Positions 701-35,099 of a DNA stretch of 36,987 bases are shown piece after piece. The notes beneath the pieces were generated by a model. The model did no database searches. It worked only from the letters and a program-made list of their open reading frames with translations, and had not been told where the DNA came from. This stretch comes from Candidatus Jorgensenbacteria bacterium RIFCSPHIGHO2_02_FULL_45_20 (GTDB lineage: Bacteria > Patescibacteriota > Minisyncoccia > UBA6257 > GWB1-50-10). Where the stretch lies: NCBI GenBank assembly GCA_001779535.1, contig MFKJ01000010.1:1-36987 (forward strand), written 5' to 3'. Position numbers and translations under genes: made by a program. Position 1 is the stretch's first letter; every line of letters starts with the position of its first letter.

Positions 701-835
701 CCGTAGCTTCGGTGTAGGTTTTGGATTTCGGAATTTAAACATTTAGATTTATTTAGGATTTGGATATTAGGGTTTAGGATTTTTGCTTGTACAATACTTA
801 CTACTTTATACTCGATACTTTATACACTTATATTC
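701..835. repeat. Intergenic mosaic repeat with 7-nt periodicity (about 17 heptads from 717), paralogous to 16058-16141 and 30941-31110
   Basis: Heptads GGTTTTG GATTTCG GAATTTA ... TTTAGGA TTTGGAT ATTAGGG TTTAGGA ... ATACTTA CTACTTT ATACTCG ATACTTT ATACACT. The alignment to the other copies is visible by eye. Confidence 0.75.
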
Positions 836-2311: not shown

Positions 2312-2353
2312 ATATGGATTATACACTAAAAACAATTTTAAATTTTGAAACTC

Positions 2354-2528
2354 GAATTTTGAGTGAAATTCGAATGAAAGAATGATGGTTCGACTTCGCT
2401 CACCACAAAACGAAACAAAAAGAATGGGATTTATTCAGAATGGTTATTCTGTGTTTAAGTAATTAATTATTTCGAAATTGATTCGAAATTCAAAATTCAT
2501 AATTCGAAATTCCCTCTCTATTCTACCC
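2354..2528. repeat. Long intergenic repeat, copy 1 (secY-adk spacer), paralogous to 28079-28226
   Basis: GAATTTTGAGTGAAATTCGAATGAAAGAAT ... TTATTCAGAATGGTTATTCTGTGTTTAAGTAATT ... TTCGAAATTGATTCGAAATTCAAAATT is shared. It has a 28-nt extra segment (2384-2411) relative to copy 2. Confidence 0.8.
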
Positions 2529-5153: not shown

Positions 5154-5708
5154 TTACGAAGCGGAAGCGCTTGTAGTGCTCTTCTTTCCGGCTTTTCTTC
5201 TTACAACCTCATCGGAATATCTGAATCCCTTGCCCTTGTACGGTTCGGCTTTTTTCATGGCGCGGATCTCCGCCGCCACTTTTCCGACGAGCGCCTTGTC
5301 GGTTCCTTTTATTTTTAGAATGGAGTTTTTTTCAATCTCGAATGAAATGCCAGGCGTCTTCGGATACAACACCGGATGGGAAAATCCGATATGGAGCGTA
5401 AGTCCGTCTCCGTCTTCCATTATACGGAATCCGACACCTTCAAGTATGAGTGTTTTTTCAAATCCCTTGGTAAGCCCGATAACCGCGTTCGCCGTAAGAG
5501 CTTTCAACGTCCCCCAGTTGCTGCGCGCTTGTTGGGAATTTCTGAATGTTTCAAAAGAAAGCGACGAGCCGCTCAAAACAGGCCTTACTCCGTCTAAAAT
5601 TTTGACTTTGGCTTCCCCCGCCGCGCTTTTCAAAACTATATCGAAATCGGTTACCGATGCCGTTATTCCGTTCGGTATCTCAATTATTTGTTTCCCTATT
5701 TTGCTCAT
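5154..5708 (-). CDS. rplF: 50S ribosomal protein L6
   Basis: [15 protein letters not shown]-terminus, LEGVGFR, KGKGFRY. I chose the ATG at 5708 over the longer ORF start. Confidence 0.9.
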
Positions 5709-5740
5709 ATATAGATGTATGTTTACTTTGAGGTTTATCC

Positions 5741-6112
5741 CTACCAAATTTCAAACAGTGTCTGTCCGCCTAGTTTATTTTTTTTTGCCCTGACTCCCGA
5801 CATTATTCCTTTCGGAGTCGAAACCATCATAATTCCATGCCCGCTCTTAACGGGCTTGAATTTTTTATAACCACCGTACCTTCTGACCGACGGGCGGCTT
5901 AAAAACTTTATGCCCTCTATCGGCCTGTCCTTCGAAAACGAAACTTCAATGATTTTTTTCGGCGGGCGTCCTTTTATGTCCATTTTCTTCACGAACCCGT
6001 ACCGCTTCAGTTCTTCAAGAACAGCGTAATCCATTCTCGAATAGCGGGTTTTAAGCGAGCGTTTGCCGGAGCGTTCCGCATTTTTGATTTTTATCAAAAG
6101 GTCTATATACAT
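5741..6112 (-). CDS. rpsH: 30S ribosomal protein S8
   Basis: 123 aa. LLIKIKNAERSGK, IMMVSTPKGIMSG and a GGQTLFEIW C-terminus. Confidence 0.9.
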   Translation of the reverse strand: MYIDLLIKIKNAERSGKRSLKTRYSRMDYAVLEELKRYGFVKKMDIKGRPPKKIIEVSFSKDRPIEGIKFLSRPSVRRYGGYKKFKPVKSGHGIMMVSTPKGIMSGVRAKKNKLGGQTLFEIW

Positions 6113-6124
6113 ATATTTTTATCG

Positions 6125-6310
6125 CTACCAGCTTGATTTTTTGATTCCGGGAATGTCCCCATTGCTCGCCAGCTCGCGGAAGCAGATTCTGCAAACGTTG
6201 AAATCGCGCATATAGCCGCGCTTTCTTCCGCACCTGAAACAGCGGCGCACAATCCGACTTGAAAATTTCGGTTTCTTGCGCGAACGGGCTATTGTAGATT
6301 TTTTAGCCAT
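6125..6310 (-). CDS. rpsN: 30S ribosomal protein S14, short zinc-binding (type Z) form
   Basis: 61 aa. [23 protein letters not shown] carries two CxxC pairs. Confidence 0.9.
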
Positions 6311-12260: not shown

Positions 12261-12318
12261 ATTTTTCCACTTTTTTCTGGAATAACGCGCCGCTACGAAA
12301 ACGCGGCGGGGGCATACG

Positions 12319-12352
12319 AAAAAAACAGCAGGGGCAAGCCCTGTTGTTTTTT
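12319..12352 (-). terminator. Terminator-like hairpin plus U-tract inside the rpsJ-rplC spacer (possible attenuator)
   Basis: Minus-strand RNA is AACAACAGGGcuugcCCCUGCUGUU followed by UUUUU. Stem is 5 bp + mismatch + 4 bp. A-run and T-run flank it. Confidence 0.4.
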
Positions 12353-12372
12353 ACGGCTGACCCGATGTTAAT

Positions 12373-12401
12373 AATTTATATTATTAACAAAGGGAAGTCA
12401 A
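12373..12401 (-). promoter_or_regulatory. Candidate internal promoter just downstream of the rpsJ stop
   Basis: Minus strand reads TTGACT (12396-12401), then N15-TATAAA or N17-TAAATT (12373-12380). Confidence 0.35.
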
Positions 12402-12411
12402 CTCCTTTGCA

Positions 12412-14059: not shown

Positions 14060-15889
14060 TTACTCCTTCTTCAAGAGCTCCTTGAAAATTTCCGGAGGGA
14101 TGGATGTATCGGCGCGTTCTTTGAGGCGTTCTTTCCCCTTCTTCTGTTTTTTCCAGAGTTTCATTTTTCTTGTTCTGTCTCCCCCGTTTTTCCCGAAATT
14201 CCCGAGTTCCTTGCGCGTCGCTGTTATGTCCGCCCTCGCGATTACCCTCCCGTAGGCGACCGCCTGAATCGGCTGGGTGTACTGCTGTTTCGGAAGGAGA
14301 GCCGTCAATTTTTCGACTGTCTTTCTTGCTTCGCGTTCGAGTGAGTCCTTCGGAAGAAAACGGATTAGTCCCGTTATTGCTTTCCCCGACACCAGAAAAT
14401 CAACTCGCGCTATGTCTGTTTTTTCATACCCGCACACGTTATAGCTGAAAGACGCGTACCCTTCGCTTACCGATTTCAGACAATCATCAAAATCGCTTAC
14501 AAGTTCGACAAGCGGCATTTTCGATGAAAGTTTTATCCTGTCCCCTATAGTTTCCGTGTGTACCTCCGAAAATCTGAATTTCTTACGGAGCGATAAGACA
14601 CCGGACAAAAATCTATTCGGAAAAATCAAAACTATGTCTATCATCGGCTCCGATATTTCAAGATAATCGGCTGGCAAGTCATCGGGCTTGACGACCTCAA
14701 TCATCTCGCCGCGTTTCGACTTAACGAGATATTTGACTGAAGGAAATGTGTTTATAACACCTATCTGGAATTCTCTCCGGAGCCGCTCGGCCGTTATCTC
14801 GAAGTGAAGCCGTCCTAAACATCCGACCTTGAATCCCCTTCCTAAAACCTCGTTATTGTCCGGCTCTGTTGAAATTGACGAATCGTTCAATTTGAGTTTC
14901 TGAAGCGCTTTGCGCAAAAAATCATATTCGCTCGCCTCCTCCGGGAAAAACGAAACGAAAATCACCGGCTTCGGCTCTTCATACCCGTGAAGCGCGAATT
15001 TTACACAATCCTCGGATTGAACGCCGCCGCTATCCACAAAAAAAGCCGTGTCCCCTATCTTTATTTTTTCAGGGTCCTTTATTCCGGTCGCCACATAGCC
15101 GATGTCGCCGTCTCGTAAAATATCAAGCGGCTTCATTTCCGGGAAAAATTTCCCCGTTTCCTTTATTTTTGTTCTCGTTCCGGCGCGCGCCATTTTGATT
15201 TCTCCGTCCGCGCGGAACTCGCCGCCGAAAATCCTGACGGAAGCCACAACCCCCTTGTGATTATCATAAAACGAATCGAATATGAGCGCCTTGCCTTTGA
15301 AAGGCGCGCTGTCCGATTTTTCGGGAGGCGGAATGACTTGTACTATTTTTTCAAGCAATCCCGGAACGCCCTCTCCGGTTTTTCCGGACACGCACATTAT
15401 TTCTTCCCTTCCGCACCCGAGCACTTCGGCAAGTTCTCCCTTCGCGGAATCGGCGGCTTTCTCGCCGAAAGAATTTATCAAATCAATTTTATTCAGAACA
15501 CCGATGATTTTAATGCCGGCTTTTTTCGCCGAAAAAAAATTCGCGAGCGTTTGCGCCTGCACTCCTTGAGTCGCGTCAACAAGAAGAACCGCGCCCTCGA
15601 CCGCCTCGAGCGCGCGCGACACTTCGTACGAAAAATCGCTGTGCCCGGGAGTATCTATAAGATTAAGCGAGTATTCCTCGCCATCGCGAGCCAAAAATTT
15701 CATCGTAACTGGCGCCATTTTTATCGTAATACCTCGCTCCCGTTCAAGTTCCAGCTGGTCAAGATACTGCGATTTCATCTTCCTCTTATCAATGGTATGT
15801 GTGTATTCCAAAAAACGGTCGGCCAGCGTTGACTTGCCGTGGTCAATATGGGCTATTATAACGAAGTTTCTTATTTTATTTGAAAACAT
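14060..15889 (-). CDS. lepA: Elongation factor 4 (LepA)
   Basis: 609 aa. NFVIIAHIDHGKSTLADRFL, DTPGHSDF, NKIDL. Length and C-terminal domain are LepA-type, not EF-G. Confidence 0.95.
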   Translation of the reverse strand: MFSNKIRNFVIIAHIDHGKSTLADRFLEYTHTIDKRKMKSQYLDQLELERERGITIKMAPVTMKFLARDGEEYSLNLIDTPGHSDFSYEVSRALEAVEGAVLLVDATQGVQAQTLANFFSAKKAGIKIIGVLNKIDLINSFGEKAADSAKGELAEVLGCGREEIMCVSGKTGEGVPGLLEKIVQVIPPPEKSDSAPFKGKALIFDSFYDNHKGVVASVRIFGGEFRADGEIKMARAGTRTKIKETGKFFPEMKPLDILRDGDIGYVATGIKDPEKIKIGDTAFFVDSGGVQSEDCVKFALHGYEEPKPVIFVSFFPEEASEYDFLRKALQKLKLNDSSISTEPDNNEVLGRGFKVGCLGRLHFEITAERLRREFQIGVINTFPSVKYLVKSKRGEMIEVVKPDDLPADYLEISEPMIDIVLIFPNRFLSGVLSLRKKFRFSEVHTETIGDRIKLSSKMPLVELVSDFDDCLKSVSEGYASFSYNVCGYEKTDIARVDFLVSGKAITGLIRFLPKDSLEREARKTVEKLTALLPKQQYTQPIQAVAYGRVIARADITATRKELGNFGKNGGDRTRKMKLWKKQKKGKERLKERADTSIPPEIFKELLKKE

Positions 15890-15900
15890 ACCGCTAATAA

Positions 15901-15935
15901 TTTAAAATTTTCAATTTGAAATTTTCAATGAATTC
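15901..15935. repeat. Inverted copy of the ATTGAAAATTTCAAATTGAAAATT module (see 26225-26279 and 29025-29074)
   Basis: Its reverse complement GAATTCATTGAAAATTTCAAATTGAAAATTTTAAA matches GGATTCATTAAAAATTGAAAATTTCAAATTGAAAATTATTC. Confidence 0.65.
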
Positions 15936-16057
15936 GCCAGCCGGCAAATCAATTGCGGAGAAAAGAAGTCAAAATACAGACACCGTTTTTCTGATTTTCT
16001 CTTATTTTGAATCCGTCTTGGGCTGATTTGATTAAAAATTGAAAATTGCCTGCCACG

Positions 16058-16187
16058 CCGTAGCTTCAGTGTAGGTTTTGGAATTTTGGAATTTGAACAT
16101 TTGGATTTATTTAGGGTTTAGGGTTTGGTGCTTAGAGTTTTGTTATCAGAGTTTTATTCGAAATTCAAAATTCGTAATTCGAAATTT
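16058..16187. repeat. Intergenic mosaic repeat, the clearest heptanucleotide-periodic array (16 heptads, 16074-16185)
   Basis: GGTTTTG GAATTTT GGAATTT GAACATT TGGATTT ATTTAGG GTTTAGG GTTTGGT GCTTAGA GTTTTGT TATCAGA GTTTTAT TCGAAAT TCAAAAT TCGTAAT TCGAAAT. Paralogous to 701-784 and 30941-31007. Confidence 0.8.
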
Positions 16188-16197
16188 CTGCTCTGCT

Positions 16198-18294
16198 CTA
16201 TCTTTTCCCGAGCGTAAGATAAATCATCTCACGCGCCGCCGCGCCGCTGGTTTCGTAATTGAAAAACGGACTGCGCGACTCCTCCCAAATATACCCGAGC
16301 GGGGCGCTAATCGCCACTTTCAGTTTCGAAGACACGCCCGACTGCGACTCGAATATGAAAGTGAATACACGCCCTTTCGCAACCGCCGTTTTGTCTGATG
16401 GAGGCGTCTCAAACTTTATTGAAAACACCCTTTCCTTCCCGGCCTGAACATTAAACCAAGTGCCGAAAACCGACTTGCCAAACGCTTGAAATGCCCATGT
16501 CTGATAGGAACTCGAATATATTTTAGAGTCCTCTATTTTTTTAAGCTCCGGGTACGTTTCATACCCTTCGGCCTCGTAATCGAACTTCGATACTATGTTT
16601 TTCACGTCGTTCCCCTTGACGGACACAAGCGAAGAACCGGGAGCCGCGTATATCTGGATGAAATTTTTGTTCGTCTCCCTCCACCACGGGTCTTTTTCTT
16701 TATTTCCCGTATGCTTTCTGTTTACGGATAAATCCGTAAACACTCCCCCTTCCGAATCAACGTCCACGCGCGCGTCAACCGACTGTTCCATAAAAACATC
16801 CGTTTTCCCTCCCGCGATGTTCGCGTTTACGACCGCGAGATAACTCCCCCAAAAGCTGTTCGGCAAATCCAGTGTCTCGCCCGCGACGCCGGAAGAAACA
16901 AGCGAGCTCTGTATGTTATTGTCCTTCGCGTAAATCATTATATCCTTTTTTGCCACGTGCTCGAAAATGCTTTTCGCGAGCGCTTCGCGTTCAAGTTCGG
17001 AAACCGAGTTCATTTTTTCGAGCGCGAGCGGAGCAAGCGTTTTCAAAATCCGCTTGGGTTCGCCAGCTCTTTTGTCGGCTCCGGTTTCAACTTCCCTTTG
17101 TATTTCTTTCAAAAAATTCTTGTTGTCAATCGCAAGCTTGTAATCCTCAAGTTCAATCGGGCCCGTTGCCGAAAGAAAACTCTCAAAAACGTTTATATTC
17201 AACCCCACTGCCGCGTCAAATTTCACGTCTCTCTCCGAATACATCTTTGAATTTTCCAGGAAGAATAAAATCGCGCGCGCCGATGAAGGAAAATCGAAAA
17301 ACCAGTTCGCGTCCCTCGCCCCCCAGTCGGTACTCATTGTTTTTATCTCCTGCGGAGGGACTATTTTCAAATCGAGCTGCCCATCAGGGTCATATATATC
17401 GCGAACGTCCATTGATTTCATTTGTCCGTTTTGAACTATAATATCAGCATAGCTCCCGACAAATCCTCCACCGGGTCTTATCTCCGCCGTATTCTGAAAA
17501 AGTACGGCTATGTGCCTTTCTTCATTCGACCGCAATACGCCTAAAATACCGCCCAAAAAAATATCCGCTTTATTCAGTTCGCCGCTGTATTTCAGATATT
17601 CGCCGCTTATATTTTGTTCGTACTCGCTTAGAGAATCCGAAAATCCGCGCAGTGCCGCGAGATTGTTTCTTACGGATTCGAGTTTCGAACCGGCTCCGCT
17701 TATTTCCGAACGAATAGCGGAAATGTTTTGAATGAGAAGCGCTCCGTTGGTCTGAAAATTTTTCATCCCGTCAAGCGTAAGGGCTTCCAGTTCGGACGCG
17801 AGATTCATAACGCTTGAATTTAATTCAATGGCATCTTCTAAAATGTCCGCGGCGTTTCGAAATCGCGGAATAAAAAAACCGAAAATTTTAAGCGCTTCGC
17901 TTCCGTATGTCCTATCCATTATATTTTTCATATTCCTGAGTTCCTTGTCGTTTTCCGCCAAAAAAACTTCCGCATCGCCGAAACGCGTTTCCTTGAGCGC
18001 CTGAATCGATAAGGAAAAGTTGCCTGCTATGTTCAGAACCCCTCCCGCGAACGCTTTTTTGATTTCGCCCGCGCGCAAGAATGCCGCTCCTGCCCACAAA
18101 GCGATAAGTACGAGCGCTGAAACGACAATCCCGAACGCGATTTTTCCGACCGAAAAAAACTTGAACGCCGGAGCGCGCGGAACCTTGGACAGATTAACAG
18201 TTTCAATGCGCGAAATCCTGCCGTAATTGCCATCCGGTTTTTTCACATCAACCAAAACCGGCTGTATGTTTTTTCTTGGAACTCTCTTTTCCAT
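16198..18294 (-). CDS. DUF4012-like membrane-anchored protein (family assigned from memory)
   Basis: One N-terminal TM (FGIVVSALVLIALWAGAAF). Core motif FQNTAEIRPGGGFVGSYAD. ATG at 18294 with AGGA 5 nt upstream is preferred over the GTG at 18357, which overlaps the upstream gene. Confidence 0.7.
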   Translation of the reverse strand: MEKRVPRKNIQPVLVDVKKPDGNYGRISRIETVNLSKVPRAPAFKFFSVGKIAFGIVVSALVLIALWAGAAFLRAGEIKKAFAGGVLNIAGNFSLSIQALKETRFGDAEVFLAENDKELRNMKNIMDRTYGSEALKIFGFFIPRFRNAADILEDAIELNSSVMNLASELEALTLDGMKNFQTNGALLIQNISAIRSEISGAGSKLESVRNNLAALRGFSDSLSEYEQNISGEYLKYSGELNKADIFLGGILGVLRSNEERHIAVLFQNTAEIRPGGGFVGSYADIIVQNGQMKSMDVRDIYDPDGQLDLKIVPPQEIKTMSTDWGARDANWFFDFPSSARAILFFLENSKMYSERDVKFDAAVGLNINVFESFLSATGPIELEDYKLAIDNKNFLKEIQREVETGADKRAGEPKRILKTLAPLALEKMNSVSELEREALAKSIFEHVAKKDIMIYAKDNNIQSSLVSSGVAGETLDLPNSFWGSYLAVVNANIAGGKTDVFMEQSVDARVDVDSEGGVFTDLSVNRKHTGNKEKDPWWRETNKNFIQIYAAPGSSLVSVKGNDVKNIVSKFDYEAEGYETYPELKKIEDSKIYSSSYQTWAFQAFGKSVFGTWFNVQAGKERVFSIKFETPPSDKTAVAKGRVFTFIFESQSGVSSKLKVAISAPLGYIWEESRSPFFNYETSGAAAREMIYLTLGKR

Positions 18295-18305
18295 ATAATT
18301 CCTGT

Positions 18306-19460
18306 TTATACTTCTTCGTGTATTATTTTTGAAATTTTGTCGGCGGCCGTTTCCCACCTGAATCGCTCCGAGTTTTGTTTGCCTGCCTTGATGAGAGCCG
18401 ACATCCTCTTCGGACTGTCGGCGAGTCCCTCTATCGCGGAAACAAATCCGTCTTCATCCCGCGCGGGAATAAGCATGGCTGAGCCGCCAAGCGTCTCGCG
18501 GAACACTCCTATATCGGAGGCCGCGACCGGCGAGCCGCATGCCTCGCACTCAAGCGGAGGAAATCCGAAGCCCTCGTAAAAAGACGGGTAAAGCAAGAGG
18601 AAGGCCGAGTGATAAAGATTTCTCAAATCCTCAAAAGACGCAAACCCCCAAAATTTTATGTCGGAAGCGCGCTTTGAACGCGCGGCAAAATCGAATATGG
18701 GCTTTGATAGCCATCCGCGCGGTCCGACTATCACAAATTTAAAATCCCTGAAAAACTTTTTCTCCTTGAGCTTCTCGAAAATCCTTATTGCCCCGGCGAT
18801 GTTTTTTCTCGGTTCAATCGTTCCGACAAAGAGAAAAAACGGATTTTCAAGGCCATGCGCTTTTTTGAATTCAATCACATCTTCTTTACTGACGTCTTCG
18901 CGAAAAAACGGGTTTATTCCGGAATGCACGACGCTCACCTTGTTGGGAGATATCCCCCACAAGTCCGTAATGTCGGTTCTTGTCGAAGAAGACACTGTTA
19001 TTATTTTGTCCGCTCTCATCGCCTGTTTTCTCGGCTGGACATACCGGTGCCATAATCTTTTTCGCGGAGAAAAAAAATGCGGGAAACGCGCGAAAGACAA
19101 ATCATGAAACACGACTATATCTTTCATAGTCCGAACGCCTCGGAGCGGAAGAAAATGCGGGCGGAATAAAACGTCATATTTTTTGAAAATACCGGTCTTC
19201 GGAATGCCTATCGTCTCCGAAAAAAGTTCTATCGCCTTATTCGGTATACCCCAATCAACAACCTCACCGCCCTGCCCAGTTGCGCAGGCAGATTGAACTT
19301 CCTCCGGCACCGTTTTTTTTCTGAAAGAATTGAAAAAAACCGAATACTCATCGCTGTCGCCGGAACGCGTCGAAAGATACCTGAGAAGCATGCGGGTATA
19401 TTCCGGGATGCCGGATGTTGTTTTTCCTATTGCGGCCCTCCTATCGTAAAGAATCTTCAT
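18306..19460 (-). CDS. Glycosyltransferase, GT4 family
   Basis: 384 aa. C-terminal EGFGFPPLECEACGSPVAASDIG (E-x7-E type motif). Confidence 0.8.
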   Translation of the reverse strand: MKILYDRRAAIGKTTSGIPEYTRMLLRYLSTRSGDSDEYSVFFNSFRKKTVPEEVQSACATGQGGEVVDWGIPNKAIELFSETIGIPKTGIFKKYDVLFRPHFLPLRGVRTMKDIVVFHDLSFARFPHFFSPRKRLWHRYVQPRKQAMRADKIITVSSSTRTDITDLWGISPNKVSVVHSGINPFFREDVSKEDVIEFKKAHGLENPFFLFVGTIEPRKNIAGAIRIFEKLKEKKFFRDFKFVIVGPRGWLSKPIFDFAARSKRASDIKFWGFASFEDLRNLYHSAFLLLYPSFYEGFGFPPLECEACGSPVAASDIGVFRETLGGSAMLIPARDEDGFVSAIEGLADSPKRMSALIKAGKQNSERFRWETAADKISKIIHEEV

Positions 19461-21244: not shown

Positions 21245-23683
21245 TCAACCGTTTTCTTTTCCGGCAAGACGGAGAATTGTTTTTATAACCGAATCGGGAC
21301 TCAAAGATATGCTCATAATACCCTCTTGAACCAAAAATTCCGCGAACTCAAAATAGTCCGACGGGGCCTGCCCGCATATTCCGATGTATTTCTTTTTTCT
21401 TTTGCATTTTTTCACGGCTTCGGCGATGAGTTTTTTCACGGCATCATTTCTCTCGTCGGCTATTCCCGCGACAAGCGCGGAATCGCGGTCTATCCCGAGC
21501 GTAAGCTGGGCAAGGTCGTTCGACCCGATGGACATTCCGTCAAAAATTTTTAAAAACTCGTCCGCGAGCAAAACATTCGAAGGTATTTCGCACATAACGT
21601 AAACCTTGAGCGTCTTGTCGCTTTTCCTTGAAAGTCCGTACTCCTCCATAACCTCCAAAACTTTCCGCCCTTCTTCCGGAGTCCTGCAAAACGGAACCAT
21701 AGGTATGACGTTTTTCATGCCGATTTCGGAACGGACTTTTCGGAATGCTTCGCACTCAAGAGAAAACGCTTCTTTGAATTTCGGGTCGTAATACCGCGAA
21801 GCGCCGCGCCATCCGAGCATCGGATTTTCCTCTTCCGGTTCATAAAGTTCCCCTCCTATAAGCTGTCTGTATTCGTTCGTTTTGAAATCCGACAGGCGTA
21901 TTATCGCGTCATTCGGCGAGAAAGCGGCGGCTATTTTCGCTATTCCTTCCGCGAGCTTATCGGAATAGAATTTCTTTTTGTCCTCATATCCGCGCGTTTC
22001 GGCGTCAATCGCGCCTATTATTTTCAAAATCCGGTTTTTTTCTCTCTTGTCTTTCAGATGAGCCGCCCCGTGCTTCAATTCTTTATATTTGATAAGTGCG
22101 TTCGGGTGGATTTTTATATGAGACGCTATTATGAATTCCAGGCGTCCGAGTCCGACTCCGGAAACCGGAAGATTGTGATAGCCAAATGCTTCGTCCGGTG
22201 AACCGATATTCGCCATAATCTTCGTTTTCGTTTCCGGAATTTTATCAAGTTTGTGCTCTTTCACGGAAAAATCCATCTCTCCTTCGTAAACGCGTCCCAC
22301 ATCCCCCTCTGCGCAACTCACTGTAACAAACATCCCGTTTTTCAATTCTCTTGTCGCGTTTTTCGTACCCACAATGCACGGCGTTCCAAGCTCCCGCGAC
22401 ACTATGGCCGCGTGCGACGTCCTGCCGCCATTGTCGGTTATGATAGCGGAGGCGATTTTCATAATCGGCTCAAGGTCGGGGTCCGTAATCGGAGCGACAA
22501 GCACTTCTCCTTTCTTGAATTCCGCTACTCCCCGCGCGTTTTTTACAATCCGTACCTTTCCAACGCCGATTTTCGAACCCACGGATATTCCCGCGAGAAT
22601 CATCTTTCCCTTTTCCTTTATTTCATATTCCGTATATGTGTTTTTATCGCGCGCGGCCGCGACTGTTTCCGGACGCGCCTGCACTATGAAAAGTTCGCCG
22701 GTGGTCCCGTCTTTCGCCCACTCGATATCCATCGGTTGAAAACACCCGCGCTCTTTGGAAAAATGTCTTTCTATTTTCATGCACCATTCTCCCAGTTTCA
22801 CCGCTTCTTCGTCCGTTATGGAAAATTTATCGCGCGCCGATTCCCCGACTTTTATTCTTTTCGTGCCGCCAAACGTCGAATATACGAGCTTTATGTCTTT
22901 TCGTCCGAGTTTTTTTGAAATCACGGGATTGAATCCGCCCTCAAGCGACGGCTTGAAAAGCACGAATTCGTCAGGGATGACTTCCCCCTGAACTATCATC
23001 TCCCCCAATCCGTAGATGCTGTTTATAACTATCACTTTTTCGAATCCGGATTCCGTGTCTATCGTGAAAGCGACACCGCTTGAGGCGATATCCGAGCGCA
23101 CCATTTTCTGCACGCCAACCGAAATAGCTACATCCGAGTTCGAAAATCCTTTATGCACTCTGTAAGAAATAGCCCTGTCCGTAAAAAGAGACGCCATGCA
23201 TCGTCTCACGGCTTCAACAACGTAAGAGGCCCCCGAAACATTCAAATATGTTTCTTGTTGTCCGGCGAAAGACGCTCCCGGCAGATCTTCGGCGGTCGCC
23301 GAAGACCTTACCGCGACACTTATGTTTTTGCCGTATTTTTCGCTCAAATTTTTATACGACGACTTTATTTCTTCCCTTATCTCGCGTGGCATTTTAGCGC
23401 GCATTATGAGCCGTCTGATTTCCTTCCCGCGTTTTTTCAGCTCGCCGATCTTGCGGGTATCGAGGCCTTTCAAAATTCCCTTGATGTTTTTATCCAGACC
23501 CGTCGTTTTCAGAATATGCCTGTACGCTTCCGCGGTTACGGCAAATCCGCCGGGAACGTTGATTCCTTCGGGTACGAGCCGCGAATACATCTCGCCAAGC
23601 GCCGCGTTTTTGCCGCCGACCACCGGCACATCTTTTATTCCTATTTCGTTGAAATCCAAAACAAACGGTTTTTCATTTTTCAT
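21245..23683 (-). CDS. ppsA: Phosphoenolpyruvate synthase (pyruvate, water dikinase)
   Basis: About 812 aa. GGKNAALGEM, phospho-His motif GGRTSHAAIVSRELGTPCIVG, C-terminal PEP-utilising domain. ATG at 23683 preferred over the TTG at 23713. Confidence 0.9.
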   Translation of the reverse strand: MKNEKPFVLDFNEIGIKDVPVVGGKNAALGEMYSRLVPEGINVPGGFAVTAEAYRHILKTTGLDKNIKGILKGLDTRKIGELKKRGKEIRRLIMRAKMPREIREEIKSSYKNLSEKYGKNISVAVRSSATAEDLPGASFAGQQETYLNVSGASYVVEAVRRCMASLFTDRAISYRVHKGFSNSDVAISVGVQKMVRSDIASSGVAFTIDTESGFEKVIVINSIYGLGEMIVQGEVIPDEFVLFKPSLEGGFNPVISKKLGRKDIKLVYSTFGGTKRIKVGESARDKFSITDEEAVKLGEWCMKIERHFSKERGCFQPMDIEWAKDGTTGELFIVQARPETVAAARDKNTYTEYEIKEKGKMILAGISVGSKIGVGKVRIVKNARGVAEFKKGEVLVAPITDPDLEPIMKIASAIITDNGGRTSHAAIVSRELGTPCIVGTKNATRELKNGMFVTVSCAEGDVGRVYEGEMDFSVKEHKLDKIPETKTKIMANIGSPDEAFGYHNLPVSGVGLGRLEFIIASHIKIHPNALIKYKELKHGAAHLKDKREKNRILKIIGAIDAETRGYEDKKKFYSDKLAEGIAKIAAAFSPNDAIIRLSDFKTNEYRQLIGGELYEPEEENPMLGWRGASRYYDPKFKEAFSLECEAFRKVRSEIGMKNVIPMVPFCRTPEEGRKVLEVMEEYGLSRKSDKTLKVYVMCEIPSNVLLADEFLKIFDGMSIGSNDLAQLTLGIDRDSALVAGIADERNDAVKKLIAEAVKKCKRKKKYIGICGQAPSDYFEFAEFLVQEGIMSISLSPDSVIKTILRLAGKENG

Positions 23684-26035: not shown

Positions 26036-26115
26036 AAATATTATTTTACCATCATTATATACAAATTTATAATCCCCGCATTACACCTGATTACGCATAT
26101 ATGAATTGCTCTCAA

Positions 26116-26197
26116 GCTCTAAATCCTAATATCTAATCCGCCTGACCGGCGGACTAAACAAATCTTAATGTTCAAATTCCAAAATTCAAAACCCGTC
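26116..26197. repeat. Inverted-orientation copy of the GGTTTTGAATTTTGGAATTTGAACATT...TTAGATATTAGG module, carrying the TCCGCC-N5-GGCGGA palindrome
   Basis: The reverse complement aligns with 30940-30980 plus 31012-31060. Confidence 0.75.
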
Positions 26198-26224
26198 TTT
26201 TTCTGTGGTTTTATCTCATTTTGA

Positions 26225-26322
26225 GTTCGTTTTGGTTATGGATTCATTAAAAATTGAAAATTTCAAATTGAAAATTATTCTCTGCTTTGCGCTTAATACT
26301 TGCCGCTTGATGCTACTTCCCG
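26225..26322. repeat. Heptad-periodic array (14 units). The first 55 nt are paralogous to 29025-29074.
   Basis: GTTCGTT TTGGTTA TGGATTC ATTAAAA ATTGAAA ATTTCAA ATTGAAA ATTATTC TCTGCTT TGCGCTT AATACTT GCCGCTT GATGCTA CTTCCCG. Confidence 0.8.
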
Positions 26323-26329
26323 CCCCGTC

Positions 26330-28041: not shown

Positions 28042-28057
28042 GATAATTTTGAATTTT

Positions 28058-28076
28058 GTCCGCCAGTCGAGCGGAC
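28058..28076. repeat. Small GC palindrome GTCCGC-cagtcga-GCGGAC, embedded in the AT-rich repeat
   Basis: 6-bp arms. Flanked on both sides by GAATTTTG. Absent from the paralogous position in the 2341-2360 copy. Confidence 0.65.
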
Positions 28077-28078
28077 TA

Positions 28079-28226
28079 GAATTTTGAGTGAAACTCGAAT
28101 GAAAGAATCAATGAAACAAAGAGAACGGAGTTTATTCAGGAAAGGTTATTCTGTGTTTAAGTAATTCAGTATTTCGAAATTGATTCGAAATTCAAAATTA
28201 GAAATTTCCGCTGCTTTCTACTCCCA
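28079..28226. repeat. Long intergenic repeat, copy 2 (tsaC-gpsA spacer), paralogous to 2354-2528
   Basis: About 29/30 identity over the first 30 nt and roughly 88% over the last ~90 nt, by eye. Confidence 0.8.
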
Positions 28227-28243
28227 TTGTTCCCTTCTGCTTA

Positions 28244-28894: not shown

Positions 28895-29024
28895 GGACGA
28901 AGTAATTTACGATTTTCAATTCGAAGTTTTTAATGAATGTTTAATGAGGAGAAAATAAAATCAAAACAATGATTAATTATTATTATACTCTGTCTTTGAA
29001 ATTATATGTTTTTTCTCCCTTTGC

Positions 29025-29074
29025 GTTCGTTTTGGTTATGGATTCATTAAAAATTGAAAATTTCAAATTATTTC
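29025..29074. repeat. Copy of the GTTCGTTTTGGTTATGGATTCATTAAAAATTGAAAATTTCAAATT module
   Basis: Identical over about 45 nt to 26225-26269. Abuts the stop codon of the 569-aa gene. Confidence 0.8.
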
Positions 29075-30783
29075 TATGCCGTTTCTCTCGCGTAACATCC
29101 GTTGCAATAAATTATCGGAGCGTTTTTTTCCGTGAGTGTCGTTTTGAAAGAAACCCCGCATTTCGCGCATTTTCTTTCGACTGTCTGGCAATAATTTATA
29201 TCCTCAATCCATCTGTGGACTTTTTCCATAATTCTGCACATCGGGCACTCGCGGGGAATAGGCAAATTCATTTTTTTTAAAAACGATAGTTCCGTCTCAA
29301 TAATCCTGTATCCTTTGCCGCAAGCCGAACATTCTATGACTTCTTTCAAGATTGATTCTCCCGTGTCTTTTATATGGTCGGGCAACTCATTCGCCTTTTT
29401 TGTTATATCGTATGTTCTTTTCTCTTTTTCTGTCCATATAAATCCTTCTTTTTCCGCCGCCTCTTTTGTCTTCGGGAAAAACAAACTCGCGAATGAATCG
29501 TTATACGGGAAACCGGTGAATTCGGGCGGGAAAAGCTCCCCGTATTTATAAACATTTCCCTTTTTGTCGGTGTATGGCATATCGTCCATATACTTTATTA
29601 TCTTCTCTCTTAAAAAACGGTATTCGCTCTCGCTGTACCTCTTATTCAGAACGCAAAACTCCCCTTTCTTCACGGACACGCATCCAAAATGATTTTTTCC
29701 TCCGGTTGACGCCCGGCAATATTCGGCGCTTATTAGATTTATTCCAGATTCATCACAAAATTTTATATCAGAGACATTTTCCCCAATATTAACCGAATCA
29801 CAACACCTCGCCATATTATTCCCCCAGCTTGCTATGTCGTAAGAATCTTTTGTCGGATTGTCCGCTATAAGAAACAAATATTTACCGTCTTCCGCAAAAG
29901 ACGTTTCAAAACATTCTTTTATGTTTTTTGAATTGAAAATATAATTTCCCGTCGAATTGACGCAAAACTTATCATAAATTCCCTTGTAAAAACTTTTTGC
30001 GTTGCAACTACGCGCTTTTTTCTTTATTTCTTGATATTTTGAATAAGAACCGATATCTATTTCGCTTATTTTTCTGAAATATTCTTCTTTCGACAATTGT
30101 TCATCAAAATAGACGTATTTTTTGTTTTTTATGTTTGTTGACGCGAAACAGTTTTGACACCCAGAAATATCACGGGAGAAAAAACATTCAAGGGATTCTG
30201 TTGCGTGGTCGGTTCCAACGCATCTATTACTCTGAAATGTATGAATGGAATCATAACAAAGTTCAGAATCGGCGGTTAAGGAACAATCGAAAATGTCTTT
30301 ATTCCCTATGCTATAAAAACCATAAGAGCAATTTTCTCCCCTGTCGCCGTGAAAAATCAGATAGCAGTTTTTCAAGTTACCTGTATGGTTTGTATATGGA
30401 GAACTTTTTGTTGTAGGAATATCTATTGACAAAGATATAATCGGGACATTGTGCAAAAGTTCATTGAACTGCTCAAAAAATGGTCTTGAGAAATCGTAAC
30501 CCCGCCCGTATTCAAACGCATCCCAATTATCGCTCCACCAGCATTTCGGACAATACACTTTATACGGCGCATCCGGAGAATATCGCGAAATCACGCTTTT
30601 CTTACATAAATCGCAATCGCGTTTATAAAGATTGAAAAAATTCAAAAACGACAATCTTCTCTCAAGCCGGCATCTCGGACAAAACGTCGGCAGCGGCACT
30701 TCTATCTTCCTATAGAAATCAAAGTCCTCGCTTTCTATCGTGTAGTTTTGCTTGCAATTCTGACACTGTTTTGATTCTTGCAT
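29074..30783 (-). CDS. Cysteine-rich protein (569 aa). Double zinc-ribbon modules at both termini flank a Cys-ladder repeat core. Function unknown.
   Basis: Long uninterrupted ORF with an ATG start. Eight CxxC pairs, four N-terminal and four C-terminal. The terminal modules are homologous to each other. Confidence 0.75.
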   Translation of the reverse strand: MQESKQCQNCKQNYTIESEDFDFYRKIEVPLPTFCPRCRLERRLSFLNFFNLYKRDCDLCKKSVISRYSPDAPYKVYCPKCWWSDNWDAFEYGRGYDFSRPFFEQFNELLHNVPIISLSIDIPTTKSSPYTNHTGNLKNCYLIFHGDRGENCSYGFYSIGNKDIFDCSLTADSELCYDSIHTFQSNRCVGTDHATESLECFFSRDISGCQNCFASTNIKNKKYVYFDEQLSKEEYFRKISEIDIGSYSKYQEIKKKARSCNAKSFYKGIYDKFCVNSTGNYIFNSKNIKECFETSFAEDGKYLFLIADNPTKDSYDIASWGNNMARCCDSVNIGENVSDIKFCDESGINLISAEYCRASTGGKNHFGCVSVKKGEFCVLNKRYSESEYRFLREKIIKYMDDMPYTDKKGNVYKYGELFPPEFTGFPYNDSFASLFFPKTKEAAEKEGFIWTEKEKRTYDITKKANELPDHIKDTGESILKEVIECSACGKGYRIIETELSFLKKMNLPIPRECPMCRIMEKVHRWIEDINYCQTVERKCAKCGVSFKTTLTEKNAPIIYCNGCYARETA

Positions 30784-30789
30784 ATTGCC

Positions 30790-30818
30790 TGTATAGATGG
30801 CTTTGACGCTGATTTTAA
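30790..30818 (-). promoter_or_regulatory. Candidate promoter of the 569-aa gene; the -10 lies 6 nt from the ATG
   Basis: Minus strand reads TTAAAA (30813-30818), N17, TATACA (30790-30795), GGCAAT, ATG. Confidence 0.35.
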
Positions 30819-30846
30819 CGGATTTACGCGGACAAATTCGGTTTCA

Positions 30847-31110
30847 AGTTCTAAATCCTAATCTCTAAACTCTAAACAATATCAATACCCAAAATTCAAA
30901 ATATAAAACATTTTGCCTACCGCACCGTGTCTTTAGTGCGGGTTTTGAATTTTGGATTTTGAACATTTGAATTTGTTTAGGATTTAGATATTAGGGTTTA
31001 GGATTTTATTTGGATTTGTTTAGTCCACCGGTCAGGCGGATTAGATATTAGGGTTTAGGATTTTATCTTGTGTGCAATACTTTCTACTTTACAAACTTTA
31101 TGGACTTTAT
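30847..31110. repeat. Composite repeat. A long imperfect inverted repeat (arms 30847-30902 and 30941-31007) is followed by a duplicated heptad module with a GC palindrome and an ACTTT-type heptad tail.
   Basis: The left arm matches the reverse complement of the right arm at about 45 of 53 aligned positions, with one 8-nt indel. GATT(T)AGATATTAGGGTTTAGGATTTT occurs twice (30981-31007 and 31038-31067). Confidence 0.75.
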
Positions 31111-34996: not shown

Positions 34997-35003
34997 AAAT
35001 ATA

Positions 35004-35031
35004 ATTATACCGGAAAACCTCTCTTCCGCAA
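35004..35031 (-). promoter_or_regulatory. Promoter of the membrane protein/nuclease pair; the -10 lies 7 nt from the ATG
   Basis: Minus strand reads TTGCGG (35026-35031), N16, TATAAT (35004-35009), TATATTT, ATG (34996). Confidence 0.45.
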
Positions 35032-35036
35032 AATAT

Positions 35037-35081
35037 GTGTACGACGTCGTACGTCATACCATGACGTACGACGTCGTACAC
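35037..35081 (-). terminator. Perfect 21-bp-arm palindrome with a 3-nt loop, downstream of the SOD gene
   Basis: GTGTACGACGTCGTACGTCAT-acc-ATGACGTACGACGTCGTACAC. On the minus strand it is followed by ATATTTTG. Confidence 0.6.
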
Positions 35082-35099
35082 AGCAATCCTGTCTGCCAC

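Follow-up and report, generated by a model that had tools for sequence, protein, structure and literature searches.

A palindromic repeat family with a heptad grammar in the lepA-upstream spacer of a Jorgensenbacteria genome and in distant phyla

Introduction

Among the small interspersed repeats of bacteria, the repetitive extragenic palindromes (REPs) are GC-rich imperfect palindromes of 20-40 nt that carry a conserved 5' tetranucleotide, and each of their families is tied to a REP-associated tyrosine transposase (RAYT) within a narrow taxon; the BOX elements are composed of modules of 45-59 nt. The genomes of the Candidate Phyla Radiation (CPR), or Patescibacteria, are regarded as streamlined. 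Here, we describe the repeat-filled spacer upstream of lepA in Candidatus Jorgensenbacteria bacterium RIFCSPHIGHO2_02_FULL_45_20, together with the palindromic repeat family of which this spacer holds a half-copy. The window is the whole stretch analysed, 36,987 nt of contig MFKJ01000010.1 (assembly GCA_001779535.1), and all positions refer to it unless a locus number (L001 and so on) is given.

Recognition in steps of seven nucleotides has been described before. HutP reads three XAG motifs with 4-nt spacers, that is, with a period of 7 (PMC2425495), and the proteins Csp, S1 and CsrA have been proposed as readers of the TAACTGA heptamer repeats (PMC4679880). As far as Mrazek et al. (2007) are relayed in PMC4679880, no long simple-sequence repeat is commoner in many bacteria than one of heptanucleotide units, for which slippage was put forward as the cause. 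The first-pass annotation of the window, made from the letters of the sequence, had likened its spacers to the short tandemly repeated repetitive (STRR) sequences of heterocystous cyanobacteria. This analogy finds no support, since the heptads of the spacer belong to the arms of a discrete palindrome whose ends and number of units are fixed and which has homologues across phyla. The annotation was right, however, in knowing of no earlier description for a CPR-like genome: neither the core sequences nor a keyword description of the modules turned up in the literature searched, most subscription journals lying outside that search.

A repeat family shared by distant phyla

The best-conserved stretch of the longest module, GGAWTTTRAACATTNRRATTTRTTTAG, served as the search pattern. 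It matches the window four times, against none in 100 shuffles, and occurs at 16 loci in species-representative genomes of at least six phyla, where we estimate that fewer than 0.1 would be expected by chance. All 16 loci are homologous well past the pattern itself, which forms in them the inner right arm of an AT-rich imperfect palindrome of ~140-170 nt. A related core pattern is present in at least 119 metagenome stretches. The hosts, whose taxonomy rests on the record titles of metagenome-assembled genomes (MAGs), comprise four Deltaproteobacteria, a Syntrophorhabdaceae MAG (two contigs), Nitrospirae, Sedimentisphaerales, a gammaproteobacterium, WWE3, Saccharibacteria, Buchananbacteria, two other Patescibacteria MAGs (one on two contigs) and one unclassified bacterium. 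Several of these loci lie on contigs of 100-330 kb, and the element is AT-rich throughout, while the GC content of the host loci ranges from 33% to 58%.

A profile was also built from 111 right arms of other organisms, with the window and its close relatives excluded, and it recovers four places in the window (Table 1). Because one of them is 16082-16139, the stretch that the first-pass annotation had called the clearest heptad array is a half-copy of the palindromic family.

Architecture and heptad grammar

The ends of the element, AAAT...ATTT, are sharp: of 75 full elements, 70 begin with A and at least 71 have T at each of the last three positions, and the adjoining flanks are unconserved and unrelated. 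The terminal inverted repeats read AAATYCTAA...TTAGRATTT, the arms being inverted at the level of the family consensus. From end to end the element follows a 7-nt register. The left arm reads AAATYCT AAATCCT ... CTAAACAA ... CAAATGTTCAAAAC; the right arm consists of GTTTTGAATTTTGAACATTTGAATTTGTTTAG, three NNNTT[A/C]G heptads and RATTT, and the number of outer units is fixed, the core GTTTAG being followed in the 75 elements always by three heptads and 5 nt. The loop between the arms is variable and sometimes houses other repeats. As the search patterns chose conserved right-arm cores, the apparently weaker conservation of the left arm is partly an effect of ascertainment.

The outer 26 nt of the right arm, which the search pattern leaves unconstrained, reveal a grammar in the 111 arms of other organisms. 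The TT and the G of each heptad carry 1.2-1.9 bits and the variable triplet 0.3-0.8 bits, with two positions of the first heptad at 1.1-1.4 bits; one position has two states, A or C, about a third of the units reading TCG instead of TAG. Ten heptads (GATTTAG, GATTTCG, ATATTAG, AATTTAG, TGCTTCG and others) account for 64% of the outer units. About a quarter of the copies are half-elements.

Elements lie only between genes and have stops in all frames, TAG or TAA recurring every 7 nt and closing three frames on both strands. They show no preference for either direction with respect to neighbouring genes (12 '++' against 16 '--'), and the element end lies a median of ~37 nt from a stop codon. An apparent clustering of element ends at 7-11 nt from start codons was distrusted, because stop-rich heptads artificially bound the start of the longest open reading frame (ORF). 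In four copies, from different organisms, a GC palindrome of 16-17 nt is nested at the same point of the arm (CTA^CTAAAC). Further heptad arrays occur at 23 of 186 adjacent flanks, against 7 of 186 distal flanks.

These flanking arrays use other vocabularies with a grammar of four conserved and three variable positions (TTACTGx, GTAAAxx, GCTGxxx, CGAxxTA, ACTTTAT); they run outward in L101, L118, L113, L107/L056, L139, L135 and L122, and in the window at 794-825 and 31066-31106. A second, GC-rich repeat (for example GTCATCGCGAGGAGCGAAGCGACGTGGCGATC ... GCCACGCCCTGCGGGCTCGCAATGAC) is nested in the loops of several elements from other phyla, in L012, L035, L044, L074, L094 and L132; L044 and L074 represent the same locus, and there the nested hairpin has different, compensating stem sequences.

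Periodicity and make-up of the lepA-upstream spacer

The spacer, 15890-16197 (308 nt), is bounded by the stop codon of a DUF4012 gene on one side and by the lepA start codon on the other. The first-pass annotation had parsed 16074-16185 into 16 heptads in unbroken register. Its letters are correctly quoted and a period of 7 is present, the autocorrelation at k=7 being 0.533 against 0.318 in shuffles (z=5.2; 0 of 2000 shuffles as high) and that at k=14 reaching z=5.6. The register, however, is broken: matches between successive heptads collapse to 0-2 of 7 at units 4-6 and 10-12, and the stretch is therefore made of three blocks, the first of which fits a period of 8 better. Tandem Repeats Finder (TRF) reports a period-8 array at 16076-16094 (2.4 copies), the TTTAGGG units, which are indeed perfect, at 16110-16126 (2.4 perfect copies), an ATTCGAA array at 16156-16186 (4.4 copies, 83% matches) and a period-14 array at 15899-15929. 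The argument from three heptads making 21 bp, or two helical turns, finds no support, as the signal at k=21 (z=1.4) is not significant.

Measured against dinucleotide-preserving shuffles, period 7 (z 2 to 6) is confined to the spacers that the annotation had named, and six other spacers show none. Repeat families and alignments likewise bear out its view of these spacers as mosaics drawn from a few 7-periodic modules that occur in either orientation. Modules of the lepA spacer recur in all six other named spacers; the direct repeats reach 84 nt (64-83% identity) and the inverted repeats 51 nt (92%). Within the inverted module copy noted there, 15906-15929 is 100% complementary to 26253-26276, and within the partial direct copy, 16028-16047 matches 26243-26262 at 95%. 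The modules also extend beyond this contig, to other genomes and to metagenomes.

The half-copy, an A-type right arm of the palindromic family, spans 16077-16140 and includes both perfect TTTAGGG units; it contains an exact match to the family pattern at 16088-16114, where shuffles lead one to expect none, and the right boundary of the family falls at 16140. In the loop segment before it (16051-16076) the hairpin is partly decayed. It is flanked by heptad arms of two related subfamilies, B and C. The B-type array 16153-16186 belongs to a direct-repeat family (D4) with 2478-2525 and 28173-28220, and matches a left-arm profile weakly (E=0.04). The C-type arm 16028-16050 is 95% identical to 26243-26262 and to 29043-29062, and the right part of the central segment 15936-16027 resembles 26200-26241 and 29008-29041. 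Read on the gene strand, the inverted C arm 15896-15935 presents the sigma-70-like hexamers TTGAAA and TAAATT separated by 18 nt, and 4 promoter-like sites were found against 0.9 expected. The lepA-upstream spacer is best read as a pile-up of inserted repeat DNA and not as an ancestral regulatory region.

Probable insertion and amplification within one lineage

Three sister genera (LepA 67-70% and SecY 81-82% identical) keep the same gene order over more than 30 kb. The DUF4012-lepA spacer of 308 nt measures 1, 48 and 10 nt in them, the 294-nt spacer between a 175-aa and a 270-aa gene measures 30 and 27 nt in relatives, and the secY-adk spacer of 208 nt measures 89, 62 and 0 nt, the third value coming from a further relative, L151. 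The S10-L3 spacer, a heptad-free control, has 151 nt in the window (12261-12411) and 138, 126 and 129 nt in the relatives, and the near-constant length across the sister genera points to a leader or regulatory RNA of the S10 operon that has been conserved. Six sister loci totalling ~106 kb, in which L149 and L150 cover part of the L148 and L146 contigs a second time, contain no detectable arm of the family, a comparison at the level of genera in which exact insertion points are unreadable. Since the sister genera do without it, the element is not needed for lepA, adk or their neighbours.

Within the family, the loop motif CCGTRKCTTYRGTG occurs only in three copies of the window (701, 16058 and 30925) and in L067, L099 and L141, three metagenome contigs of related organisms. 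Its stem is CCGCAC/GTGCGG at 30925 and CCACAC/GTGTGG in the relatives, a compensatory change. The shared loop motif is the signature of a subfamily that would have multiplied within one lineage.

The window's strain has been assembled repeatedly. Contig LCLJ01000001.1 (MAG GCA_001002015.1, our L001) is 100% identical to the window apart from one 106-nt gap, and the same strain is present in at least ten further metagenome contigs. Comparison of SecY homologues puts it close to Candidatus Jorgensenbacteria. The 106 nt (22366-22471) are present in the window and in L002 and missing from L001, where their loss splits the pyruvate phosphate dikinase gene into ORFs of 411 and 362 aa; the gene is intact elsewhere, with 812 aa in L002 and as an ORF of 822 aa in the window, and the gap in L001 is probably a difference of assembly or curation.

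A few observations on relatives may be added. In the sister-genus secY-adk spacer of L149 (7270-7358), the sequence TTGAAAATTTTATTAAATTTGAAAATCAA is like C-type units (TTGAAAA), and the C vocabulary may have its origin in the clade's own promoter-region sequence or imitate it. L141 matches the window at 92% DNA identity (5598-5954 against 30653-31009) over the element and the first ~130 nt of a 569-aa gene; its protein is 56% identical over residues 1-88, the only part covered, and its upstream neighbour is not tgt. Possibly the element moves together with the 5' end of a family of paralogous genes, or homogenises it. The nearest Sua5 homologues, through which sister loci were sought, reached no more than 54% identity, and none came from sister genomes.

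Origin and nature of the family

We hold it probable, if by no great measure, that the palindromic family is a non-autonomous, horizontally spread invasive repeat of the miniature inverted-repeat transposable element (MITE) or REPIN type. It has discrete ends, unrelated flanks, intergenic sites and empty sites in relatives, and a lineage-specific subfamily, a composition independent of the host and a patchy range across phyla jointly argue for the same reading. We infer that the element is mobile. Because its conservation is 7-periodic, some protein, be it a mobilising enzyme or a host factor, presumably reads the TT[A/C]G units at 7-nt spacing.

As an invasive repeat, the family would have been acquired horizontally and then amplified within the lineage, being mobilised in trans by a protein that reads TT[A/C]G units spaced 7 nt apart; in the lepA spacer, the half A-type copy would have come to be flanked by fragments of the B and C subfamilies. 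Several side effects on the host can be envisaged. Genes that abut or overlap in relatives would become uncoupled, stops (TAG/TAA) would be introduced into all three frames of both strands, and the C arm would donate AT-rich promoter-like hexamers just upstream of lepA.

A number of observations weigh against such an origin. Direct repeats of 3-8 nt show no excess that would indicate a target-site duplication (offsets +/-5, lengths 2-8), the best 2-nt case giving 11 observed against 4.8 expected among 121 tests; this leads away from DDE-type MITEs and towards REPIN-like (HUH), IS110-like or recombinase movement. No transposase or shared gene family stands beside the elements in ~850 kb of loci, where the sole families to emerge from all-against-all clustering of 1358 ORFs were ABC ATPases, at 12 loci, and LAGLIDADG endonucleases, at 5 loci. 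Three inverted arm pairs with 1.6-1.8 kb between them (L036, L092, L108), considered as an autonomous parent, enclose ordinary genes, namely an ABC transporter, a dehydrogenase-like ORF or rRNA-antisense ORFs, and no transposases. A vector is likewise wanting: the viral contigs searched gave 0 copies, 72,556 plasmids gave none, and the phage records gave one marginal 52-nt match in a Bacillus phage and nothing else. The strain contigs L002, L004, L005 and L007, compared base by base, are identical across the spacer and show no variation in presence or copy number, and the remaining strain contigs of ten near-identical ones aligned at 100% identity. The copies within one contig, L069, differ in their heptads, unlike the outcome of a recent burst. 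Finally, 7-periodic conservation with a restricted vocabulary is unlike the neutral decay of a selfish element and fits selection for binding.

As for the LAGLIDADG ORFs near elements (L028/L145, L084, L036, L095), no link to element ends was seen, and they probably sit in rRNA introns of CPR bacteria; L036 also has an rRNA-antisense-like ORF.

Selection for binding is the essence of the main rival explanation, unlikely in our view and yet to be taken seriously, in which the hosts keep the element as a cis-acting site. Each arm would offer at least four TT[A/C]G sites at 7-nt spacing, on which a protein binds co-operatively, whether a cold-shock or OB-fold protein on single strands or a HutP- or TRAP-like multimer; the element would serve to insulate spacers, to anchor the nucleoid or as a site of antitermination or processing, and would have spread from phylum to phylum with, or because of, a conserved binding partner. 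The 7-periodic conservation of the outer 26 nt in arms of other organisms, the vocabulary in which ten units make up 64%, the fixed number of units and the symmetric layout are in keeping with this, as are the stability of the spacer among strains and the excess of 4+3 heptad arrays in adjacent over distal flanks. A spacing of 7 bp, we reason, does not hold sites to one face of the duplex but suits readers of single strands, and the period-7 reading by HutP and the proposal of Csp, S1 and CsrA serve as precedents (PMC2425495, PMC4679880). However, the corresponding gene junctions of the sister genera have no element, a candidate for the binding protein did not emerge, and the third or so of units that read TCG and not TAG break the A required by HutP. 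Moreover, a sporadic range across phyla and a host-independent composition are more typical of parasitic DNA, an argument made likewise for the pneumococcal BOX, RUP and SPRITE repeats (PMC3049150). A bolder version, to which we give a lower chance still, would make the heptad grammar the code by which a horizontally mobile system of protein and DNA (or protein and RNA) reads or writes nucleic acid seven nucleotides at a time; far from being inert parasites, the elements would insulate spacers or serve in processing, and CPR bacteria would have them in common with phyla that may include their hosts.

Little probability attaches to a function in RNA, in which the A/C-rich 5' arm and the G/U-rich 3' arm would form a long stem in transcripts of either direction and serve for intrinsic termination both ways, for the stabilisation of mRNA 3' ends or as a target of RNase III. 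It is true that full elements out-fold their shuffles (30840-31015 reaches -59.9 kcal/mol, z=-8.3), that most of 17 tested elements form 45-60 pairs, that a GC stem followed by GUUUUGAAUUUU is present in some copies (window 30925; L064, L070, L137), that elements keep close to stop codons and that divergent gene pairs are rare (6 of 58 resolved contexts). Yet the arms do not covary: the outer arms pair at 16.1 of 26 positions within an element and at 16.3 between different elements, inner-arm duplexes give -11.9 and -11.3 kcal/mol, respectively (p=0.2), and RNAalifold finds in 14 elements only a local stem of 9 pairs with 0 compensatory changes. The stems are AT-rich. Folding of the lepA spacer is no better than that of its shuffles (z=-0.1 and +0.6), 15850-16250 is free of terminator-like sites (GC stem-loop plus U run), only a few individual copies elsewhere qualify, and hairpins before half-elements are no more stable than controls (-5.4 against -7.0 kcal/mol); the terminator role that the first-pass annotation had thought plausible finds no support. 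The window has no Rfam match at the gathering score and no tRNA with ARAGORN, and a permissive Rfam scan of seven loci returned only sub-threshold matches to plant MIR precursors (L026), which amount to generic AT-rich hairpins. The family is not a structured RNA and, in general, not a terminator. Least credible is a simple-sequence repeat generated locally by slippage, an STRR-like or contingency locus perhaps giving phase-variable expression. Short perfect runs do exist (TTTAGGG, 2.4 copies; TTTTGGAA, 2.4 copies), and heptanucleotides lead the long simple-sequence repeats of many bacteria, so far as the survey is relayed (PMC4679880). The array has, however, base-for-base homologues among the arms of other phyla, the family as a whole keeps to one number of units, the four strain contigs compared base by base show no change in copy number, and successive units differ, sharing 0-6 of 7 bases, with a longest perfect run of 2.4 copies. 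An origin by slippage is already largely refuted.

Repeat copies and other features of the window

Table 1. Repeat copies, profile matches, period-7 spacers and flanking genes of the lepA-upstream spacer (window positions unless a locus is given)
Feature	Position	Strand	Remarks
A-type right arm (half-element)	16077-16140	+	core GGAATTTGAACATTTGGATTTATTTAG, then GGTTTAG GGTTTGG TGCTTAG, terminal AGTTT
GC-richer loop segment	16051-16076	+	motif CCGTAGCTTCAGTG; lineage-specific subfamily marker
B-type heptad array	16153-16186	+	ATTCGAA x4.4 (TRF); directly past DUF4012 stop codon
C-type heptad arm, partial direct copy	16028-16050	+	TTGATTAAAAATTGAAAATTG; family D3
Central segment between two C-type arms	15936-16027		repeat families D14, D9; alignment
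C-type heptad arm, inverted copy	15896-15935	-	abuts lepA start codon; inverted repeats I8/I9
Full-length palindromic A-type element	30846-31006	+	161 nt: left arm, lineage-specific loop hairpin, right arm
Extra partial arm	31008-31062	+	57-nt duplication; family D10, spacing 57
A-type arm, inverted	26115-26192	-	profile; inverted repeats I1-I3; nested 17-nt palindrome 26137-26153
A-type right arm (half-element)	718-782	+	profile match 725-781; TRF
B-type palindromic element	2340-2512		fills secY-adk spacer; arms 2340-2382 (inverted) and 2470-2512
B-type palindromic element, second	28075-28206		sua5-gpsA spacer; D7, D20, I7
C-type palindromic element	28903-29070		arms 28903-28938 and 29042-29070, ~103 nt between; I17, I4, D9
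C-type arm	26242-26277	+	ATTCATTAAAAATTGAAAATTTCAAATTGAAAATTA; TRF 26246-26276; I8, D9
Profile match	16082-16139	+	E=3.4e-10
Profile match	725-781	+	E=1.1e-9
Profile match	26186-26115	-	E=1.6e-8
Profile match	30948-31005	+	E=2.5e-15
Nested GC palindromes	26137-26153, 31024-31040; L015 ~6150-6177; L075 ~787-802		TCCGCCTGACCGGCGGA, TCCCGAGTACTCGGGA, TCCGCCAGCTGGCGGA
Period-7 spacers	1-863, 2336-2543, 15890-16197, 26036-26329, 28042-28243, 28895-29073, 30784-31106		dinucleotide-preserving shuffles
lepA	14060-15889	-	start codon at 15889
DUF4012 gene	16198-18357	-	stop codon 16198-16200

The 37 kb contain at least five A-type arms, and the element at 30846-31006 is the single full-length A-type copy; its left arm matches the profile at 30846-30901 (E=2.3e-8). 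The partial arm that follows it carries a nested 17-nt palindrome, TCCACCGGTCAGGCGGA, at 31024-31040, and is missing from the related contig L141. The hairpin CTATACCG-TAGCTT-CGGTGTAG precedes the arm at 718-782, and an array called D (794-825, unit ATACTTT) comes after it. B- and C-type arms build palindromic elements of their own (2340-2512, 28075-28206 and 28903-29070), the first being a near-copy of the second (D7 91%, D20 94%; I5, I24; alignment), and such arms also occur in a few loci of other organisms, including the gammaproteobacterial L019. A sequence like the nested GC palindromes, GTCCGCCAGTCGAGCGGAC, lies at 28059-28080.

The genes of the window are on the minus strand except for one small plus-strand gene (249-476), a hydrophobic ORF of 75 aa. 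It is equipped with an extended -10 element, TGGTATAAT (172-180), and with AAGGAGA (238-244) as a strong Shine-Dalgarno sequence; at 484-515 comes a textbook terminator, in which T-rich sequence follows ACTCCGCGCG-CCCG-CGCGGAGT. The spacer 34997-35099 holds a perfect 22-nt inverted repeat with a 3-nt gap at 35036-35082 (TGTGTACGACGTCGTACGTCAT ATG ATGACGTACGACGTCGTACACA), and a second long palindrome near the left end of the window, 88-121 (GGACGTCCGACGTC..GACGTCGGACGTCC), again has a core of the ACGACGTCG type; the two may be operator sites of one regulator.

Significance

If the family is indeed an invasive repeat, ~5% of a 37-kb region of core genes (ribosomal operon, lepA, tuf, secY) would consist of invasive repeat DNA, which parts genes that abut in sister genera. 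The gene lepA, within 48 nt of its upstream gene in relatives, is here 308 nt off and behind promoter-like hexamers. With hardly a base changed, the core recurs in Deltaproteobacteria, Nitrospirae, Planctomycetes, Gammaproteobacteria and several CPR lineages of groundwater and sediment, and could therefore serve to trace the exchange of DNA among phyla, perhaps including that of episymbionts with their hosts. It raises the question of which machinery moves a palindrome without a target duplication or a known transposase, and the 7-periodic conservation provides a concrete handle on the protein partner. On the practical side, such repeats break assemblies, several matches lying at contig ends or beside runs of N, and they can be masked and annotated once a model exists.

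Comparison with known systems

The family shares much with the MITEs, such as the Correia/NEMIS elements of Neisseria and the pneumococcal RUP, which are ~150 nt long, non-coding, AT-rich, intergenic and present in many copies, with an inverted-repeat architecture, sharp ends, empty orthologous sites and promoter-like hexamers. It resembles them in being short, non-coding and multi-copy, with elements of 140-170 nt at 16 genome loci and in at least 119 metagenome stretches. It departs from them in having no target-site duplication and, within the ~850 kb of loci, no parent insertion sequence with matching ends; in being best conserved beside the loop and not at the tips; in having arms that are arrays of 7-nt units; and in extending as one family over many phyla.

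With the REPs, REPINs and bacterial interspersed mosaic elements (BIMEs) of enterobacteria and pseudomonads, the family has in common palindromic doublets and singletons (here the half-elements), the lack of target duplication and a strictly extragenic location, and the spacers resemble BIMEs as mosaics of few motifs in both orientations. Its arms, however, are ~60 nt long, AT-rich and heptad-periodic, and they cross phyla. They have no internal palindrome of the REP kind, apart from the nested 16-17-nt GC palindrome of four copies, and no RAYT was seen within the window or in loci of up to ~22 kb. BOX, organised as boxA-boxB(n)-boxC, and SPRITE are alike in being modular, mosaic intergenic repeats of low current mobility that were judged parasitic since close relatives lack them (PMC3049150); BOX is unlike in having no 7-nt substructure and in being confined to a few streptococci.

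Other likenesses lie in the 7-nt step. The STRR sequences also have an intergenic 7-nt unit, which they repeat as tandem runs of one heptamer, whereas the units here differ, are fixed in number and form two inverted arms around a conserved core that is homologous across phyla. The HutP sites of the Bacillus hut terminator, two sets of three NAG with 4-nt spacers flanking a central stem (PMC2425495), offer a functional analogy only, for the reading of units at 7-nt spacing; here, about a third of the units are TCG, the other arm reads CTAA/CGAA on the same strand, there are apparently many copies per genome, and no HutP homologue was seen. The TAACTGA repeats of Beggiatoaceae, cyanobacteria and Bacteroidetes are intergenic heptamers common to distant phyla, for which horizontal spread is suspected with no known mechanism, and they often stand directly upstream of start codons (PMC4679880). 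Although these are direct arrays of 2-43 identical copies of another unit, with no palindrome or core (PMC4679880), they are, by analogy, the nearest conceptual precedent for heptamers common to distant phyla. For a small interspersed palindromic repeat, the present family is unusual in its lack of target duplication, its heptad grammar and its range across phyla.

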